Positions 39,701 through 45,700 of a stretch of DNA of 64,000 bases are shown one piece after another. Source of the DNA: Candidatus Ryanbacteria bacterium CG10_big_fil_rev_8_21_14_0_10_43_42. Its GTDB lineage: Bacteria > Patescibacteriota > Minisyncoccia > Ryanbacterales > 2-02-FULL-48-12. The number at the start of each line of letters is the position of its first letter. The stretch's first letter is position 1. The stretch is from positions 83,108 through 147,107 of the forward strand of contig PFEF01000005.1 of the NCBI GenBank assembly GCA_002793915.1, given 5' to 3'. A program made the position numbers.

Positions 39701-42700
39701 CCGTTCACTCGGCGTGATATTACAACTCACCTAGAGAAAAACGGCATACAGACACGCCCAATATTTACCGGTAATATTTTGATGCATCCGGGGTTTAAGA
39801 ACATACCCCACAAAAAAGCTGAAAAGGCATATCCCGTTACGGAGCATATTATGAAGAATGCATTTTTAGTGGGATGTCATCAGGGACTTACCGATAAGGA
39901 GCTTGCATATATGGAAAAAACATTTCAAGCGTTTTTAAGGAGATATGAGTGAAAAAATCGATAAGAAAATTTCGGTAGTGATTCCTTGTTATAATGAAGA
40001 ATCAAATCTTCCTGAACTTTATACGCGGGTGACGGAAGTTCTTGCTTCTCTTGCTGTACAGTATGAGATCATTTTTACCGATAATAAAAGCACTGATACT
40101 ACGCGAAAGCTTTTGCGTGATTTAGCGGAGAGAGATAAGCATGTAAAGGTGCTTTTTTTTGCGCGTAATTTTGGAAACTCCCAATATGGATATTCCGCCG
40201 GTAGCGCATATGCAACGGGAGACGTTGTTATTTGGATGGAGGCTGATCTTCAGGACCCACCGGAAGTAATCAGAGAATTTATAAAGAAATGGCAAGAAGG
40301 GTTTCAGATTGTCTATGGCGTGCGGTCACAAACAGAAGGTTCATTTTTTTCACAATTATTACGACATGCATTTTATAAAGTTTTTAAAAAATTGTCATAT
40401 CTTGATATTCCCGTAGACGCAGGGGATTTTTCGCTACTGGACCGCAAGGTTATAGATATATTTAATACCATGCCGGAGCGCTCGCGACTTGTGCGCGGTA
40501 TGCGTGCATGGATTGGGTTTCAGTGTGCGGGTGTTGCATATAAGCGTAAAAAACGTGCGGGGGGAATGACGTCAAATCCGAATTTTATAAAAAACCTTTG
40601 GTGGGCAAAAAAATTGATATTTTCTTTTTCCGAAACGCCGCTCACTTTTATAACAAACATTACTCTCTGGCTTGTTATAATGATACCTTTTTTCATTATC
40701 TTTATGGTTTTGCTAGTATATATTGAAATTATTTCTTGGATTATGGCATTTGCGTTCATTGTAATTATGGTTATTTTGACACTACAAACTATCGCATTAT
40801 CATTTTTAGGTGAATCAATGAATATTATGTTTGAAGAAGTAAAACAACGACCACTATATGTTATTGAAGAGAAAATAAACTTTTGATTAATCATGCCTCA
40901 TGTAATTTTACGAAGATCTTACTTATTTTATGGAAGAGGAATAATTATTTATTTCTTGTGAATATTTCGAATGTATTCATTTGCGAATATGAGTAGAAAT
41001 ATGCTACCTTTTCAGTGAAAAAACAATAAAAATTAAGCAATAATATAACAAGAGTCATTAAAAACATGAGCTCGAAAAGAGTAAAATGTGGTATCATTGG
41101 AACAGGTAATATCGGTATGGATCTGTTGTTTAAGGTGCAACGATCAGAGTTTTTGGAGTGTAGTATTTTTGTAGGGCGCAATATGGAATCGAAAGGAATT
41201 CGAAAAGCGGAAGAAATGGGTATTAGAACTTCCACTGATTCTATTCGGGCAATTCTTAATGAGCCGGATATTTGCGAAGTAGTTTTCGATGCAACTTCAG
41301 CAAGAGATCATATGGTGCATGCGCCACTCCTTTCAAAACTGAGTATGTTTGTCATCGATCTAACACCATCGCGATTTGGTAAAATGTGTATTCCTGTTAT
41401 GGATCTCGAAAACGGTTTGAGTTCCCAAAATATTAATATGGTAACATGTGGCGGTCAGGCCATAGCACCTATAGCAAAGGTGTTAATGGAAATACATCCG
41501 GAAATAAAGTATATAGAAGTTGTTGCAACAATTTCTTCAAAATCGGCTGGTCTTGGTACTCGAGCAAATATAGATGAATATACACAGACAACTAAAGATG
41601 CGATTGAGTATTATTCAGGGGTACCTCGCGCAAAAGCTATAATTATTTTAAATCCCGCAGAGCCACCGATTCGAATGCATAACACGATATATGTCGAAAT
41701 TGATAATCCAAAACTGGAAGAAATTAAACATAGAGTTACGGAGGTTGCTTCTCGTATAAAAAAATATGTATCAGGATATGTTATTGCTTTGGAGCCGACT
41801 TATGAGAATGGACGTCTTACTATAATGATAGAAGTTGAAGGTCGGGGAGATTATTTGCCACCATATTCCGGAAATTTAGATATTATAACTTCTGCAGCGG
41901 TTCAGGTTGCTGAGGAACACGCGAGAAAGAAATATGCATGTATATGAAAAATCCACGCTTTTTTGACTCAACGTTACGGGACGGGTCGCATGCGGTGCGG
42001 CATCAAATTAGCGTTGCGACAATTAAAGATTACTGTGAAATAATTGATGGATCAGGTATATATGTGGTTATTGTAGGGCATGGTAACGGTCTGGGTGCCT
42101 CTACTTTGCAGGTTGGTCGATCTCTTCACTCTGATTCAGAGATAATTTCGACAGCTCGTGATGCTCTTCATAGCACAAAACTCGGTGTGTTTATGATTCC
42201 TGGATTTGGGACAATAAAGGATGATCTGGCTCCTGCGCTGGATGCCGGAGTCGATTTGGTCTGTATTGGCGTTCATTGCACTGAAGCCGATGTGACTCAG
42301 CAATATGTTGAATATGTGAATAGTAGAGGAAAGGAAGCCATTGGCGTACTTATGATGTATCATAGAGCGTCAAAAGAGCGGTTGCTGGAAGAAGCACAAA
42401 AGATGCAGCAATATGGTGCGCATGGCGTGCTACTGATGGATTCTGCTGGTTCGTCTACTGCCGATTTGGTAAGGCAAACAATCGAATATCTTGTTCGTAA
42501 TCTACAAATTCCCGTGGGATTCCATGGGCATAATAATCTGGGTATGGCGGTGGCAAATTCGTACTATGCCTTAAAGTCGGGTGCGGCGTTTATTGATGGT
42601 ACTACGCTGGGGTTTGGGGCTGGTGCGGGGAATTGTCAGCTTGATGCCTTAATTGCATTATTACAAAAGAATAAGATAGATGTCGGTGTTTCATTATATA

Positions 42701-45700
42701 AACTATTGGATGCGGGAGAAAAAACAATAAAACCTATTATGGTAAAACCGCAAGGAATTGATGCTACGAGTATTGTGAGCGGATTGGCGGGTGTGTTTTC
42801 CGGTTTTGCACCGCATGTTAATCGAATAGCAATGGAATTTGGTGTAGACCCAAGAGATATATTTGTGGAACTTGGTAAAAGAAATGTTGTTGCTGGTCAG
42901 GAAGATATTATTGTTGACGTTGCAGTGGAGTTATCTAATAAAAAATGAAAGTTGCTGATTACATAATTGATTTTTTTGAGAAAAAAGGCGTTACAAATGC
43001 GTTTGTGGTTGTTGGTGGTCAGGCAATGTTTCTTGATGATGCGGTGTATAGGAGTAAGAAAATTAAGCCGATTTTCACTCATCACGAACAGGCAGCTGGC
43101 ATGGCTGCTGATGCATGTAGTCGGTTAAAAAACAAGCCCGCCATTGCTTTAGTTACAGCTGGTCCCGGAGCTATAAATGTAGTAAATGGTGTGATTGGTG
43201 GATGGGTTGATTCTTCACCCATGATTATTTTATCAGGACAAACAAATTTATCTTTTATCAAATATCAAGAGGAGTCTGGTATTCGGCAGTTTGGTGTGCA
43301 GGGTATCAATGTAAGGCCGTTAGTCGAACGATCAGTTAAATTTTTTGTTACCGTCGATGATCCGAAGAAAATTTTATATTATTTACAAAAGGCATATTAT
43401 CTTGCCACAAGCGGCAGACCCGGACCTGTATGGTTAGATGTACCATTAAATATTCAGGGAGCGCCTGTACCCGATGGTCCTTTATTAGAATTTACGGAAC
43501 AAGTAGATGACGATATCCCGCAGGATATAAACGAAAAACTGAAAGATGCAATGCATTTATTACAGTATGCTAAACGGCCACTTATTTTAGTTGGGCAGGG
43601 CGTACGACTTGGTAATGCTATAGAAGAACTTAATATGTTTATAGACCGTGTTCGTTTGCCGGTCCTTACGGCCCGTTTAGCAATAGATGTAATACAAAGC
43701 AATCATCCGTTATATGTGGGTAGACCTGGTACTTATGGAGAGCGGGCGGCAAATTTTGCCATTCAGAATGCTGATGTAATTTTATCGGTGGGATGTCGGC
43801 TCGGCACATCGTTAATTGGTCATGATGCAAAGGATTTTGGGAGAAATGCAAAAAAGATTGTCATAGATATAGATCAAAAAGAGTTAGATAAACCGGGAGT
43901 TGATATTGCCGTAAAAATACGCACTACAGCTAAAGATTTTTTTCAGAAAGCGCTTGCGGAGTGTGAGGGTTTAAAATTGCCTGATTGGAAAGAATGGATT
44001 TCCATATGTAAAGAATGGAGAAAAACATATCCTGTTGTACTGTCTTCATATAAAGATGAAAAACCCGTTAATTCTTACTATTTTATAGATAGATTATCTG
44101 CCGTTGCTGAAAAGGATGATTGGGTTTTGGTTGATACGGGATCTTGTTTTCATGTGGCATCTCAAGCATGGAGCGTAAAAGATGGTCAGCGATTTTTAAC
44201 GACGGGGGGAATTTCCACTATGGGGTATTGGGTTGCAGGAATTGGTGCTTGCATGGCTCGTGATAAAAAACGGGTAATCGTAATAACAGGAGATGGAAGT
44301 TTGCAAATGAATCTTCAAGAATTTGCGACAGTCAAGCAGAATGAATTACCGTTAAAGGTGTTTATATTTAATAATAACGGCTATTTACTAATGCGGATTA
44401 TGCAGACCAATTTTATGGACAAGCGATTTATGGGTGAAAGCCCGAAAACTGGTTTATGGTGCCCTGATTCATTGAAAATTGCCGAAGCATACGGTATACG
44501 GGGAATAAGAATAGATTCGACTAAGGGGATTGATGAAAAAATTAAAGAGATTCTTGATTATCCAGGTCCGGTCATTTGTGATGTGATGACACCTGATTGG
44601 CAGATTTTAGCGCCCCGCACGATGTCTGATAAGACGCCTGAAGGAAAGTTGGTGGCGCGGCCATATGAAGATATGTATCCGTTTTTAGATCGTGATGAAC
44701 TGAAACGGCAGATGATTGCGGAGTTACCGGATGCATAGTAGTTATGAATATGAAGATATTACTTTTGGGTGGTTCCGGATTTATCGGAAGGAACATTATC
44801 GAATTATTGGGTGAGAAATACGATATCACAGCGCCAACACATCGGGAGTTGGATCTTTTAAATGCGGATGCTGTACAATCATTTTTGAATAAAAAAAGAT
44901 ACGATAGAGTAATTTATGCGGTGAACGTGGGAGGGAAGCGTAACCAAAAGGCACTTACCGGCGTGTATGATGCAAATTACCGTATGTTTTTGAATGTCGC
45001 AGAACAGGGTGAGCGGTTCGGACGCATGATTTTTTTAGGTTCTGGGGCGGAATATGGAAAACAGCGTGATATTGTTATGATAAAAGAGGAAGATTTTGGT
45101 ACCATTCAGCCTCTTGATGATTATGGTAGATCAAAATATTCTATTTCGGAATATATTAATGAACATGAAAATATAATCAATTTGCGGTGTTTCGCAGTTT
45201 TTGGAAAGTACGAGGATTATAAGGTTCGCTTTATTTCGAATGCGATTTGCCGCGCTTTGTTTGGATTACCGATTACTATGCATAGGAATGTGAAATTTGA
45301 CTATCTGTATATTCTTGACTTGGTAAAAATCATAGAATATTTTATTGTCAATCAACCCATGTTAATATTTTATAATGTGGGTTTTGGAAAACCTATTGAG
45401 CTTACGGAACTTGCCCAAATAGTAAAACAAGCAACATTGAACGACGCGCGAATTGAGATAGAGCAGCTAGGGTATAGTAATGAGTATACGTGTGATACAA
45501 GTCAACTGAAAGCGGAAATAGGAGATATGGCGCTCACTTCGTATGAACAAGCGATTAGTGAAATGATCGAATACTATAAGAACATTCTTCCTATTATGCA
45601 ATATAAAGACTTGGAAGAATAATATTTATATATGCATTTTTATGAGTATCAGGGAAAAGAGTTATTTGATGCATATCGTATACCTGCACCGCGTGGCGTG

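Follow-up and report, generated by a model that had tools for sequence, protein, structure and literature searches.

A DmpFG-like enzyme pair in a Candidatus Ryanbacteria glycan locus likely serves an erwiniose-type branched-sugar pathway

A dehydrogenase-aldolase pair among glycan genes

What does a DmpF/DmpG-like pair make when its genes lie among those for glycan synthesis? We addressed this question in a 64,000-nucleotide stretch of a Candidatus Ryanbacteria (CPR) genome, referred to as the window, whose ORFs were scanned with Pfam and NCBIfam models (Table 1). Nearly all ORFs annotated at ~0.5-54 kb of the window are glycan-related, in agreement with an earlier sequence-only reading that had placed the pair within a glycan operon. 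Both ORFs lie where that reading had put them, and its assignments hold, since both proteins exceed the curated cut-offs for acetylating acetaldehyde dehydrogenase (TIGR03215) and 4-hydroxy-2-oxovalerate aldolase (TIGR03217). The motifs that it quoted, NMVTCGGQA, NPAEPP, TLRDGSHAVRHQ, HCTEADV and GQEDIIVDVA, were all found; its SISSKSAG reads TISSKSAG.

The pair opens a run of seven plus-strand genes (41066-48344), in which neighbours overlap or are separated by 9 nt or less, and which is preceded by a 179-nt gap 5' of the DmpF-like ORF. The order is DmpF, DmpG, a YerE/ErwE-like ThDP enzyme, an SDR, the two subunits of a citryl-CoA synthetase and a citryl-CoA lyase. Upstream of the run lie genes predicted, from their families, to produce an NDP-4-keto-3,6-dideoxyhexose.

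Table 1 Features of the glycan locus in the window.
Feature	Coordinates	Strand	Support
Nucleotidyl transferase	30909..31862	+	Pfam NTP_transferase, 75.9 bits, residues 59-298
NDP-hexose 4,6-dehydratase-like SDR	35778..36785	+	TIGR02622, 203 bits, under 278 cut-off
SDR epimerase/dehydratase family protein	36800..37765	+	Pfam Epimerase, 124.6 bits
GT2 glycosyltransferase	37767..38726	+	Pfam Glycos_transf_2, 90.4 bits
E1/RfbH-like PMP-dependent NDP-4-keto-6-deoxyhexose 3-dehydrase	38753..39952	+	Closest solved relative E1 (3BCX/3BB8), 231 bits
GT2 glycosyltransferase	39945..40886	+	Pfam Glycos_transf_2, 103 bits
DmpF/BphJ/ErwJ-like CoA-acylating acetaldehyde dehydrogenase, 293 aa	41066..41947	+	TIGR03215, 375 bits (cut-off 282)
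DmpG/BphI/ErwI-like class II pyruvate aldolase, 336 aa	41938..42948	+	TIGR03217, 358 bits (cut-off 286); HMGL-like and DmpG_comm domains
YerE/ErwE-like ThDP-dependent carboligase	42945..44738	+	TPP_enzyme N, M and C domains
SDR, candidate YerF/ErwF-like reductase of branch carbonyl	44744..45622	+	Pfam Epimerase, 100.6 bits; role inferred from position
Citryl-CoA synthetase large subunit (SucC-like, citrate-binding domain)	45632..46708	+	ATP-grasp_2 and Citrate_bind domains
Citryl-CoA synthetase small subunit (SucD-like)	46711..47619	+	CoA_binding, Succ_CoA_lig and Ligase_CoA domains
Citryl-CoA lyase	47619..48344	+	NF004869, 272 bits (cut-off 212)
Bac_transf initiating phosphoglycosyl transferase, convergent with operon end	48353..49762	-	Pfam Bac_transf, 194.6 bits

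We compared this arrangement to the erwiniose scheme that Steitz et al. proposed in 2022 for ErwJ, ErwI, ErwE and ErwF of Pectobacterium atrosepticum SCRI1043 (PMC9306805). In that scheme acetyl-CoA is reduced to acetaldehyde, which is joined to pyruvate to form 4-hydroxy-2-oxopentanoate; decarboxylation of this acid and its addition to a keto-sugar are the work of the ThDP enzyme (PMC9306805). ErwE accepts 4-hydroxy-2-oxopentanoate, prefers its R enantiomer and rejects pyruvate (PMC9306805, PMC12247030); the in vitro tests in the Erw paper covered ErwE only, with surrogate acceptors (PMC9306805). The window shares the four adjoining enzyme types (acylating dehydrogenase, DmpG-type aldolase, YerE-like ThDP enzyme and SDR), the 4-keto-3,6-dideoxyhexose and glycosyltransferase gene neighbourhood, and the proposed logic, a likeness of enzyme type and gene order. 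It differs in its host, a CPR bacterium rather than an enterobacterium, in its E1-like 3-dehydrase, which lacks the Fe-S cysteines and has no E3 reductase seen with it, and in its additional citryl-CoA synthetase/lyase triad.

We consider it likely that in Candidatus Ryanbacteria the pair is the half that builds the side chain in an acyl-branched deoxysugar pathway of the erwiniose type. The pair most likely works in the biosynthetic direction, as the sequence-only reading had proposed; acyl-CoA to aldehyde, followed by condensation with pyruvate to a 4-hydroxy-2-oxo acid, matches the published ErwJ/ErwI scheme (PMC9306805). That reading overlooked that the branch chemistry had been published in 2022; here its host would be an ultra-small member of the CPR, and a citrate-splitting module would be attached to it.

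Specificity residues of the pair

The window pair shares its fold and domains (HMGL-like plus DmpG_comm; AcetDehyd-dimer) and its gene order, F then G, with DmpFG, BphIJ, MhpEF and HsaFG (PDB 1NVM, 4JN6, 4LRS, 8IH7), and retains the metal ligands, the catalytic Arg and His and the Cys nucleophile. The top PDB match of the DmpF-like protein is 7z3s (299 bits), and its Cys128, Asn168 and Ile169 are kept in 58-60 of 60 family members. In the aldolase, Arg14, Asp15, His18, His196 and His198 are conserved, while Phe85, Ile87 and Phe287 stand in place of Leu, Leu and Tyr. The catalytic motif set, previously described as full, is therefore not quite so, with DmpG Tyr291 (BphI Tyr290) replaced by Phe287 and Leu88 by Phe85. 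Across an aldolase set made up of the window and 66 further loci, the position of Tyr291 holds Phe in all members (67/67) and that of Leu88 holds Phe or Tyr in 63/67, whereas the four solved catabolic enzymes, which are 35-45% identical to the window aldolase, all carry Tyr and Leu. Judged by its sequence, the aldolase is a member of a distinct subfamily apart from the catabolic enzymes, and both the identity level and the different specificity signature argue against a squarely catabolic ortholog.

BphI engineered to L87W/Y290F is 4R-specific, and longer aldehydes required L89A in this enzyme (PMC3962088). The combination of Phe287 with a mostly aromatic position 88 mimics the 4R-specific variant, and we predict a 4R product, of opposite stereochemistry to that of the catabolic enzymes. 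The residues that set aldehyde size are still small-aliphatic (aldolase Ile87; dehydrogenase Asn168/Ile169), which bears on the product that the sequence-only reading had favoured, namely a 3-deoxy-2-ulosonic acid serving as a glycan building block, made from a large or sugar-derived acyl-CoA via its aldehyde and pyruvate, in analogy to sialic acid, KDO and KDN. The chemistry is formally identical and the glycan context genuine, but small-aliphatic residues speak against sugar aldehydes, given that BphI needed L89A for longer substrates. Moreover, the scan of window ORFs brought up no CMP-ulosonate synthetase-type activating gene, and the invariant ThDP partner, an enzyme that decarboxylates 2-oxo acids, would destroy the ulosonic carboxylate. 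We regard an ulosonic product as very improbable.

A catabolic role, in which the pair would split 4-hydroxy-2-oxopentanoate into pyruvate and acetyl-CoA and lie beside glycan genes by chance, is hardly credible, even though both proteins exceed equivalog cut-offs derived from catabolic enzymes. In the window the pair has no hydratase, dioxygenase or hydrolase gene beside it, and no such gene or other meta-cleavage gene is among those immediately flanking the DmpF-DmpG-ThDP trio in related loci, in keeping with the earlier view that meta-cleavage makes no sense here. The genes 5' of DmpF in those loci encode sugar dehydratases, GT2 enzymes, DegT or MBL-fold proteins. The window pair also sits inside a tight operon with sugar genes and falls within a distinct subfamily whose stereochemical signature is altered, and its host is one of the CPR bacteria, whose metabolism is known to be reduced. 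Relative to the catabolic systems, the direction proposed for the erwiniose-type pathway is reversed.

The two genes were previously thought to keep a canonical 10-nt overlap that supports substrate channelling. An overlap of this length is present only if the aldolase starts at ATG 41938. The second ATG, at 41944, gives a 4-nt ATGA overlap and a 334-aa aldolase, and this is the start used in public gene calls (334-aa product). Homologous loci most often show an overlap of 4 nt (21 loci), and 10 nt is therefore not canonical. Rather than channelling, the gene overlap hints at coupled translation.

The ThDP carboligase and its sugar acceptor

YerE-like ThDP carboligases decarboxylate 2-oxo acids and transfer them to NDP-keto-sugars. 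The window ThDP enzyme has the YerE-like JanthE as its closest solved relative (8rph, 379 bits; acetolactate synthases reach no more than 243 bits), scores under the cut-off of every acetolactate synthase equivalog model, and contains the GDG-X25-NN motif and the HHEQ glutamate. Among the 55 related loci whose upstream sequence extends far enough, the DmpF, DmpG and ThDP genes are colinear and adjoining in 53, the remaining two being near misses. With a YerE-like carboligase directly downstream in 53/55 loci, the keto acid would be a branch donor and not a sugar. In 36 of 65 loci the gene directly 3' of the ThDP gene belongs to the Epimerase family (SDR). One locus, L001, has a second ThDP paralog (42% identical) that adjoins an SDR.

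In the yersiniose A pathway of Yersinia pseudotuberculosis (YerE and YerF), as in the one proposed here, a ThDP enzyme branches a 4-keto-3,6-dideoxyhexose at C-4 and an SDR then carries out a reduction. YerE uses pyruvate as its donor and forms a C2 branch, with no aldolase or dehydrogenase needed; the dedicated C5 keto-acid donor proposed for the window instead predicts a C4 branch. The window ThDP enzyme might nevertheless act first, using pyruvate as donor of a C2 unit for the keto-sugar, with DmpG and DmpF extending or modifying the acetyl branch or merely supplying pyruvate or acetaldehyde. DmpG-type aldolases are established to act on free 2-oxo acids, not NDP-sugars, and the near-absolute DmpFG-ThDP linkage fits a dedicated donor better than a supply of ubiquitous pyruvate. 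Pyruvate-using YerE-like enzymes do exist (PMC12247030), and the L001 paralog indicates that both types can coexist, but Steitz et al. tested and rejected this order for ErwE, which did not accept pyruvate (PMC9306805). We consider such an order unlikely.

What the sequences show is the identity of the genes, the residues that are kept, a gene order that is itself conserved, and the separation of the subfamilies; from these we infer the enzymatic steps, stereochemistry, nucleotide carrier and citrate-module role of an erwiniose-type pathway. The DmpF-like enzyme would reduce acetyl-CoA to acetaldehyde, and the DmpG-like aldolase, probably complexed with DmpF, would condense this with pyruvate enolate to 4-hydroxy-2-oxopentanoate, for which the Phe85/Phe287 signature predicts the 4R enantiomer. 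The ThDP enzyme would decarboxylate this acid and attack C-4 of an NDP-4-keto-3,6-dideoxyhexose, supplied by the products of the upstream 4,6-dehydratase-like and E1-like 3-dehydrase genes. The adjoining SDR would then reduce the ketone so formed, giving a 1,3-dihydroxybutyl branch, and the neighbouring GT2 enzymes would place the sugar into a surface glycan. Citryl-CoA synthetase and lyase would split citrate to yield acetyl-CoA, and possibly oxaloacetate as a source of pyruvate.

For the acceptor, the nucleotidyl transferase, whose real start is probably 3' of 30909, is a candidate for the sugar-1-phosphate nucleotidylyltransferase with which NDP-hexose synthesis would begin. The closest model to the 4,6-dehydratase-like ORF, which is syntenic in L002 (74% identity), is CDP-glucose 4,6-dehydratase, and the dTDP-glucose dehydratase model gives 179 bits. 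The E1-like ORF reaches 337 bits with the RfbH model NF011936, under its cut-off of 423. As both score under equivalog cut-offs, the nucleotide carrier could be CDP, dTDP or GDP. The E1-like protein keeps a His at the E1 His220 position, and in a MAFFT alignment Ser, Gly and Ile occupy the positions of E1 Cys251, Cys253 and Cys261, the same three cysteines being missing in the HMMER alignment. It is apparently a variant without the [2Fe-2S] cysteines, and its predicted product is the 4-keto-3,6-dideoxyhexose acceptor. With three of the four Fe-S cysteines absent and no E3 reductase seen, 3-deoxygenation is an uncertain step. In 38 related loci there is a canonical E1 whose Cys/His signature is complete.

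The citrate-splitting module

The closest solved relatives of the triad are the citryl-CoA synthetase (CCS) and citryl-CoA lyase of Hydrogenobacter thermophilus (PDB 6HXQ, 6HXP), which carry out the same three-protein, two-step citrate cleavage. The top PDB match of the large subunit is the CCS large subunit (6hxq_B, 145 bits) and that of the lyase is citryl-CoA lyase (6hxp_A, 239 bits), while the small subunit has a GHAG motif at 255-258 with His256 as the candidate phosphohistidine. Whereas the H. thermophilus enzymes serve the reductive TCA cycle, the window triad is not part of a carbon-fixation cycle and lies in a CPR genome, inside or beside glycan operons, apparently as an acetyl-CoA source.

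The triad occurs inside the module in 3 of 82 cases, the window and its two closest relatives, with full synteny in L002; in L003, unlike in the window, it has the ThDP gene on one side and the SDR gene on the other. It is absent within 10 kb from all other related loci, including those of other Patescibacteria. This distribution, together with the wide occurrence of the triad across Parcubacteria in non-Erw contexts, is what one would expect of a housekeeping acetyl-CoA/oxaloacetate module that merely abuts the glycan island and is functionally unrelated to the branch pathway. The MurB-SecA-2-Hacid_dh block found 3' of the triad in the window is also 3' of it in L086, and this conserved synteny means that the adjacency to the operon could partly reflect an ancestral housekeeping position. 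However, the window triad is only 9 nt from the preceding SDR on the same strand, and the differing L003 arrangement places it within the module. Elsewhere in CPR genomes it consistently adjoins acetyl-CoA users, and DmpF uses acetyl-CoA too; its neighbour is a GNAT acetyltransferase in four of six contexts and GlmS in the other two, one of which also showed a faint hexapeptide-repeat match. We therefore hold an unrelated module to be quite possible, though somewhat short of an even prospect, and propose that the triad probably supplies acetyl-CoA to the erwiniose-type pathway.

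A dehydrogenase-aldolase pair at the head of a glycan operon

The DmpF-like and DmpG-like proteins score above the equivalog cut-offs of TIGR03215 (acetylating acetaldehyde dehydrogenase, 375 bits against 282) and TIGR03217 (4-hydroxy-2-oxovalerate aldolase, 358 bits against 286), respectively. The aldolase comprises an HMGL-like TIM barrel (PF00682, 136 bits) and a DmpG communication domain (PF07836, 94.9 bits). The two genes head a run of seven on the plus strand, with spacings of at most 9 nt or overlaps, preceded by an AT-rich gap of 179 nt. They are followed by a ThDP enzyme, whose gene shares 4 nt with that of the aldolase, an SDR that starts 5 nt past the ThDP gene, a SucC-like protein with a citrate-binding domain, a SucD-like protein and a citryl-CoA lyase. 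Upstream on the same strand lie a 4,6-dehydratase-like SDR, a second SDR, a GT2, an RfbH/E1-like DegT-family protein and a second GT2, while an initiating phosphoglycosyl transferase (minus strand) and two Wzy_C-TPR proteins are found on the 3' side. Promoter and terminator sites predicted between 34 and 50 kb of the window were no more frequent than in shuffled sequence, and therefore the scan was uninformative on operon boundaries. The description of the pair as embedded in a glycan operon agrees with the annotated ORFs from about 0.5 to 54 kb, nearly all of which are glycan-related; three PMT_2 proteins and many methyltransferases also fall in this stretch (to 54.3 kb). At more than 50 kb, it represents a large investment for a CPR (Patescibacteria) genome. 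A NUDIX protein is encoded 5' of the dehydratase gene, is syntenic in L002 and is also present in L003, the two loci most closely related to the window. A further ORF 5' of the dehydratase gene has no Pfam match.

Coordinates of features in the window and in related loci
Feature	Location	Coordinates	Strand	Length
Sulfatase-family protein	Window	15215-16744		
Sulfotransferase	Window	16790-17710	-	
GDP-mannose 4,6-dehydratase	Window	19831-20829		
Carbamoyltransferase	Window	25257-27068		
NUDIX protein	Window	34262-34993		243 aa
ORF without Pfam match	Window	35159-35764		201 aa
E1-like DegT-family protein	Window	38753-39952	+	
DmpF-like dehydrogenase	Window	41066-41947	+	293 aa
DmpG-like aldolase	Window	41938-42948	+	336 aa
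ThDP enzyme	Window	42945-44738	+	597 aa
SDR	Window	44744-45622	+	292 aa
Citryl-CoA synthetase/lyase triad	Window	45632-48344	+	
Two Wzy_C-TPR proteins	Window	49857-54304		
Second ThDP paralog	L001	15770-17560	-	
SDR adjoining the paralog	L001	14916-15749		
E1-like protein	L002	5514-6707		
E1-like protein	L003	6088-7260		
MBL-fold protein (Lactamase_B_2)	L007	3117-3857		roughly 246 aa
PEP carboxylase	L009	2755-4287	-	
E1-like protein	L039	about 3070		
DmpF-DmpG-ThDP trio variant (GNAT and aminotransferases)	L088	11818-14760		

The two ORFs overlap by 10 nt if the aldolase starts at ATG 41938, and through an ATGA if it starts at ATG 41944. The 10-nt overlap that the sequence-only reading called canonical exists with the first of these starts; however, public gene calls use the second (product of 334 aa), and the commonest overlap among the homologous loci is 4 nt (21 loci). 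Exact-sequence look-up of the 336-aa aldolase gave no match because the public calls begin at ATG 41944. The public call for DmpF is 276 aa long and loses the Rossmann motif GTGNIG (GxGxxG, at residue 12), hence the 293-aa start is preferable.

The catalytic motifs quoted in that reading were recovered, except that its SISSKSAG is TISSKSAG in the sequence. In the dehydrogenase, the nucleophile Cys128 and Asn168 are each conserved in 60/60 family members and Ile169 in 58/60; these residues (Asn168 and Ile169 being the equivalents of Asn170 and Ile171) appear to fit short aldehydes. Alignments map the aldolase unambiguously onto 1NVM: Asp15, His196 and His198 correspond to the metal ligands Asp18, His200 and His202, and Arg14 and His18 to the catalytic Arg17 and His21. 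All five are invariant in every family member covering those columns. The claim of full catalytic motif sets thus holds for the metal ligands, the Arg/His pair and the cysteine, but not for two further aldolase positions, where Phe287 and Phe85 replace Tyr291 and Leu88.

Aldolase subfamily and stereochemistry

We compared these positions across the window aldolase and those of 66 related loci (n=67), with four solved catabolic enzymes as reference. The equivalent of DmpG Tyr291 (BphI Tyr290) is Phe in 67/67 sequences, that of Leu88 (BphI Leu87) is aromatic in 63/67 (45 Phe, 18 Tyr) and that of Leu90 is Ile in 61, whereas all four catabolic enzymes carry Tyr291, Leu88 and Leu90. Identities are 46-100% within the set and 35-45% to the solved enzymes. 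Searched exhaustively, 1.84 billion representatives yielded only 403 clusters at an E-value of 1e-30 or better, which sort by positions 88, 90 and 291 into three classes: the catabolic class (Leu, Leu/Val, Tyr), the Phe287 class of the window (His/Phe/Tyr/Met, Ile/Met, Phe) and a third (Phe, Ile, His) in which His21 is replaced by Tyr and most proteins are 650-700 aa long. This third class is large, with the representative proteins P0271, P0276 and P0280 and about 100 others. By these residues and identities, the window aldolase belongs to a subfamily distinct from the catabolic enzymes.

In BphI, Y290F loses 4S control, and the double mutants L87W/Y290F and L87N/Y290F are 4R-specific (PMC3962088). 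Since mutating these two residues shifts BphI from 4S to 4R, we infer that the natural product of the subfamily is the 4R acid. An aromatic residue or His at position 88 together with Phe at position 291 (DmpG numbering) would then serve as a signature by which biosynthetic aldolases can be recognized, and one that also predicts 4R products. We saw no statement of this stereochemical signature in the papers that we read.

A predicted branched-sugar pathway

The ThDP enzyme matches at 100% identity a protein of Candidatus Ryanbacteria bacterium CG10_big_fil_rev_8_21_14_0_10_43_42 (Parcubacteria/Patescibacteria, CPR). It carries a GDG-X25-NN motif and the catalytic glutamate, and its best solved relative is the YerE-like JanthE (8rph, 379 bits; acetolactate synthases reach no more than 243 bits). 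An acetolactate synthase was rejected as its identity, given this relative and scores far below the cut-offs of all ALS equivalog models. Thus, the enzyme fits the YerE/ErwE class, as judged from these matches. The same gene arrangement occurs in Pectobacterium atrosepticum (Steitz et al. 2022, PMC9306805), where the acetaldehyde dehydrogenase ErwJ and the pyruvate aldolase ErwI are the proposed source of (R)-4-hydroxy-2-oxopentanoate. In that scheme the acid is coupled to CDP-4-keto-3,6-dideoxy-D-glucose by ErwE, after which reduction by ErwF gives erwiniose (PMC9306805). In vitro, ErwE takes 4-hydroxy-2-oxo acids with a preference for one enantiomer (product 1R,4R) and rejects pyruvate (PMC9306805). 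The 4R acid predicted for the window aldolase would be the enantiomer that ErwE prefers.

By the published description of the Erw proteins (WP_011093010 to WP_011093013), the window shares with that system an aldolase-dehydrogenase pair placed next to a YerE-like ThDP carboligase. Of the Erw genes for the CDP-sugar (cytidylyltransferase, 4,6-dehydratase, E1 and E3), it has dehydratase-like and E1-like counterparts, both below equivalog cut-offs. We read the module, from its gene content, as a probable Erw-type acyl-branched sugar pathway, for which the fate of the product has already been published.

In the scheme we propose, citrate would be cleaved by the triad into acetyl-CoA and oxaloacetate, the DmpF-like enzyme would reduce acetyl-CoA to acetaldehyde and the DmpG-like aldolase would condense acetaldehyde with pyruvate to (4R)-4-hydroxy-2-oxopentanoate. 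The ThDP enzyme would decarboxylate this acid and add the remainder to an NDP-4-keto-3,6-dideoxyhexose. Reduction by the SDR, a candidate for the YerF/ErwF role by position only, would give a 1,3-dihydroxybutyl branch with the constitution of erwiniose, and a GT2 would then transfer the branched sugar. The window and its related loci show the identity of the genes, the conserved residues and the linkage; enzymology has been shown, by others, for ErwE only, and the rest of the scheme is inferred. A YerE-like order, with pyruvate transferred first, was rejected experimentally for ErwE (PMC9306805) and would leave the near-absolute linkage to DmpFG unexplained.

This linkage was seen on scanning metagenomes with an alignment of ThDP homologs, which gave 80 loci (ThDP identity 56-76%); genome contigs scanned with the window ThDP protein alone added one locus, and tblastn of the enzyme against plasmids gave no match at 1e-80. 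Of the 55 loci that extend 2.1 kb or more upstream, 53 have the DmpF, DmpG and ThDP genes adjacent and colinear, and the other two are near misses. An Epimerase/SDR gene comes directly after the ThDP gene in 36 of 65 loci. Directly before DmpF, the 49 loci scored include a sugar dehydratase in nine, a GT2 in eight and a DegT protein in three; the commonest gene here, in 13, encodes an MBL-fold protein (Lactamase_B_2) that the window lacks. Homologs with a named source belong to Magasanikbacteria, Falkowbacteria, Elusimicrobia, Pseudomonadota, Clostridium and Lachnospiraceae, and two loci are from human-gut metagenomes.

A catabolic role for the pair would call for supporting gene context, which is absent: no FAA-hydrolase-type hydratase or ring-cleavage dioxygenase lies directly before DmpF (49 loci) or after ThDP (65 loci), and no 2-oxopent-4-enoate hydratase or extradiol dioxygenase was found among the scanned window ORFs. 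The sequence-only reading had considered an aromatic meta-cleavage role ill-fitting, in line with the lack of such genes both in these ORFs and flanking the trio; by identity and specificity residues, the aldolase is not squarely a catabolic ortholog. Its biosynthetic direction for the pair appears right, considering the ErwJ/ErwI scheme and the ThDP linkage. Its proposal of ulosonic-acid chemistry (sialic acid, KDO, KDN) fails, however, since the channel and specificity residues of aldolase and dehydrogenase fit short aliphatic aldehydes rather than sugar aldehydes, the ThDP partner is invariant and decarboxylating, and no CMP-ulosonate synthetase-type family occurs among the window ORFs scanned.

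The acceptor sugar would be made with the DegT-family protein, whose best solved relative is E1, the CDP-4-keto-6-deoxyglucose 3-dehydrase (231 bits). We assign it as a dehydrase because His sits at the position of E1 His220; an aminotransferase was rejected, as the Lys that would form the Schiff base is replaced by this His. Of the four [2Fe-2S] cysteines, three are missing, a loss also seen in L002, L003 and L039, while 38 other loci have E1 with the canonical Cys/His pattern. As these cysteines are absent and no E3-type reductase was found in the window, the protein may be a ColD-like, reductase-independent variant.

What the window adds to the Erw system is an unexpected lineage, two variant features (a cluster-less E1 and the citrate-cleavage module) and a predictive stereochemical signature. 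The recently proposed route to long-branched sugars (erwiniose, caryophyllose), so far tied to a small number of cultured pathogens, would extend to many lineages without cultures, among them CPR bacteria, Elusimicrobia, Clostridia and human-gut contigs. CPR bacteria are host-dependent and interact through their surface, and a costly branched sugar among more than 50 kb of glycan genes in such a genome is a useful lead. Pyruvate aldolases that are R-selective by nature, and ThDP carboligases that form tertiary alcohols, both predicted here, are of interest for biocatalysis.

Two loci show additional variation. In L088 (Lachnospiraceae bacterium ZAX-1, Firmicutes) the trio is preceded by a dehydratase, two nucleotidyltransferases, a GT2 and an E1-sized DegT protein, and after it come a GNAT and two aminotransferases in place of the SDR, which suggests an aminated or acetylated form of the branch. 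L001, a Patescibacteria locus, has a second ThDP paralog adjoining an SDR; this paralog shares 42% identity with the window enzyme and may be a YerE-type, pyruvate-using brancher beside the Erw-type one.

The citrate-cleaving module

Both the lyase (NF004869, 272 bits against a cut-off of 212) and the SucC-like subunit (PF16114 Citrate_bind, 82 bits) have their best PDB matches in Hydrogenobacter thermophilus (6hxp_A and 6hxq_B, respectively). The SucD-like subunit has a GHAG motif with His256 as candidate phosphohistidine. Lyase homologs at 51-80% identity are all from Patescibacteria where the source is named. A literature search for citryl-CoA and CPR returned one preprint, which reports CCS/CCL-like sequences in CPR bacteria with no functional link to glycans.

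The module could be housekeeping or dedicated to the branch pathway. Among ThDP-linked loci the triad is confined to L002, which is fully syntenic with the window, and L003, where the ThDP and SDR genes flank it. It also forms a three-gene unit in all six other CPR contexts examined, adjoined by a GNAT acetyltransferase in four (L082, L086, L093 and L094) and by GlmS in the other two (L092, with a faint hexapeptide-repeat match, and L084/L085, with an unannotated ORF); GlmS is near the triad in three of the six contexts. A MurB-SecA-2-Hacid_dh block follows the triad in L086 as it does in the window, and the position of the triad may thus be partly ancestral. Our reading is that the triad supplies acetyl-CoA to consumers encoded next to it, DmpF among them. 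The triad is widespread in Parcubacteria. These Parcubacteria lack a TCA cycle, and the arrangement suggests that the triad is the acetyl-CoA source for their envelope sugar synthesis, which hints at where cells that have next to no central metabolism find acetyl-CoA for the envelope.

A bolder and rather doubtful version is a citrate-to-sugar-branch operon, in which the CPR symbiont would split scavenged citrate and use both acetyl-CoA and oxaloacetate on the spot. The DmpF-like enzyme would reduce the former and the DmpG-like aldolase would decarboxylate the latter to the pyruvate enolate, which would make the aldol addition effectively irreversible. Hints in this direction are the triad within the L003 module, the PEP carboxylase of L009, the oxaloacetate decarboxylase activity reported for class II pyruvate aldolases generally (PMC5065237) and the GNAT and GlmS neighbors. 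If true, CCS/CCL would be the general acetyl-CoA source for the envelope glycans of Parcubacteria without a TCA cycle. The L009 enzyme, of archaeal type (PEPcase_2, 439 bits), is encoded between the ThDP and SDR292-like genes and is a second oxaloacetate-producing enzyme inside the module.
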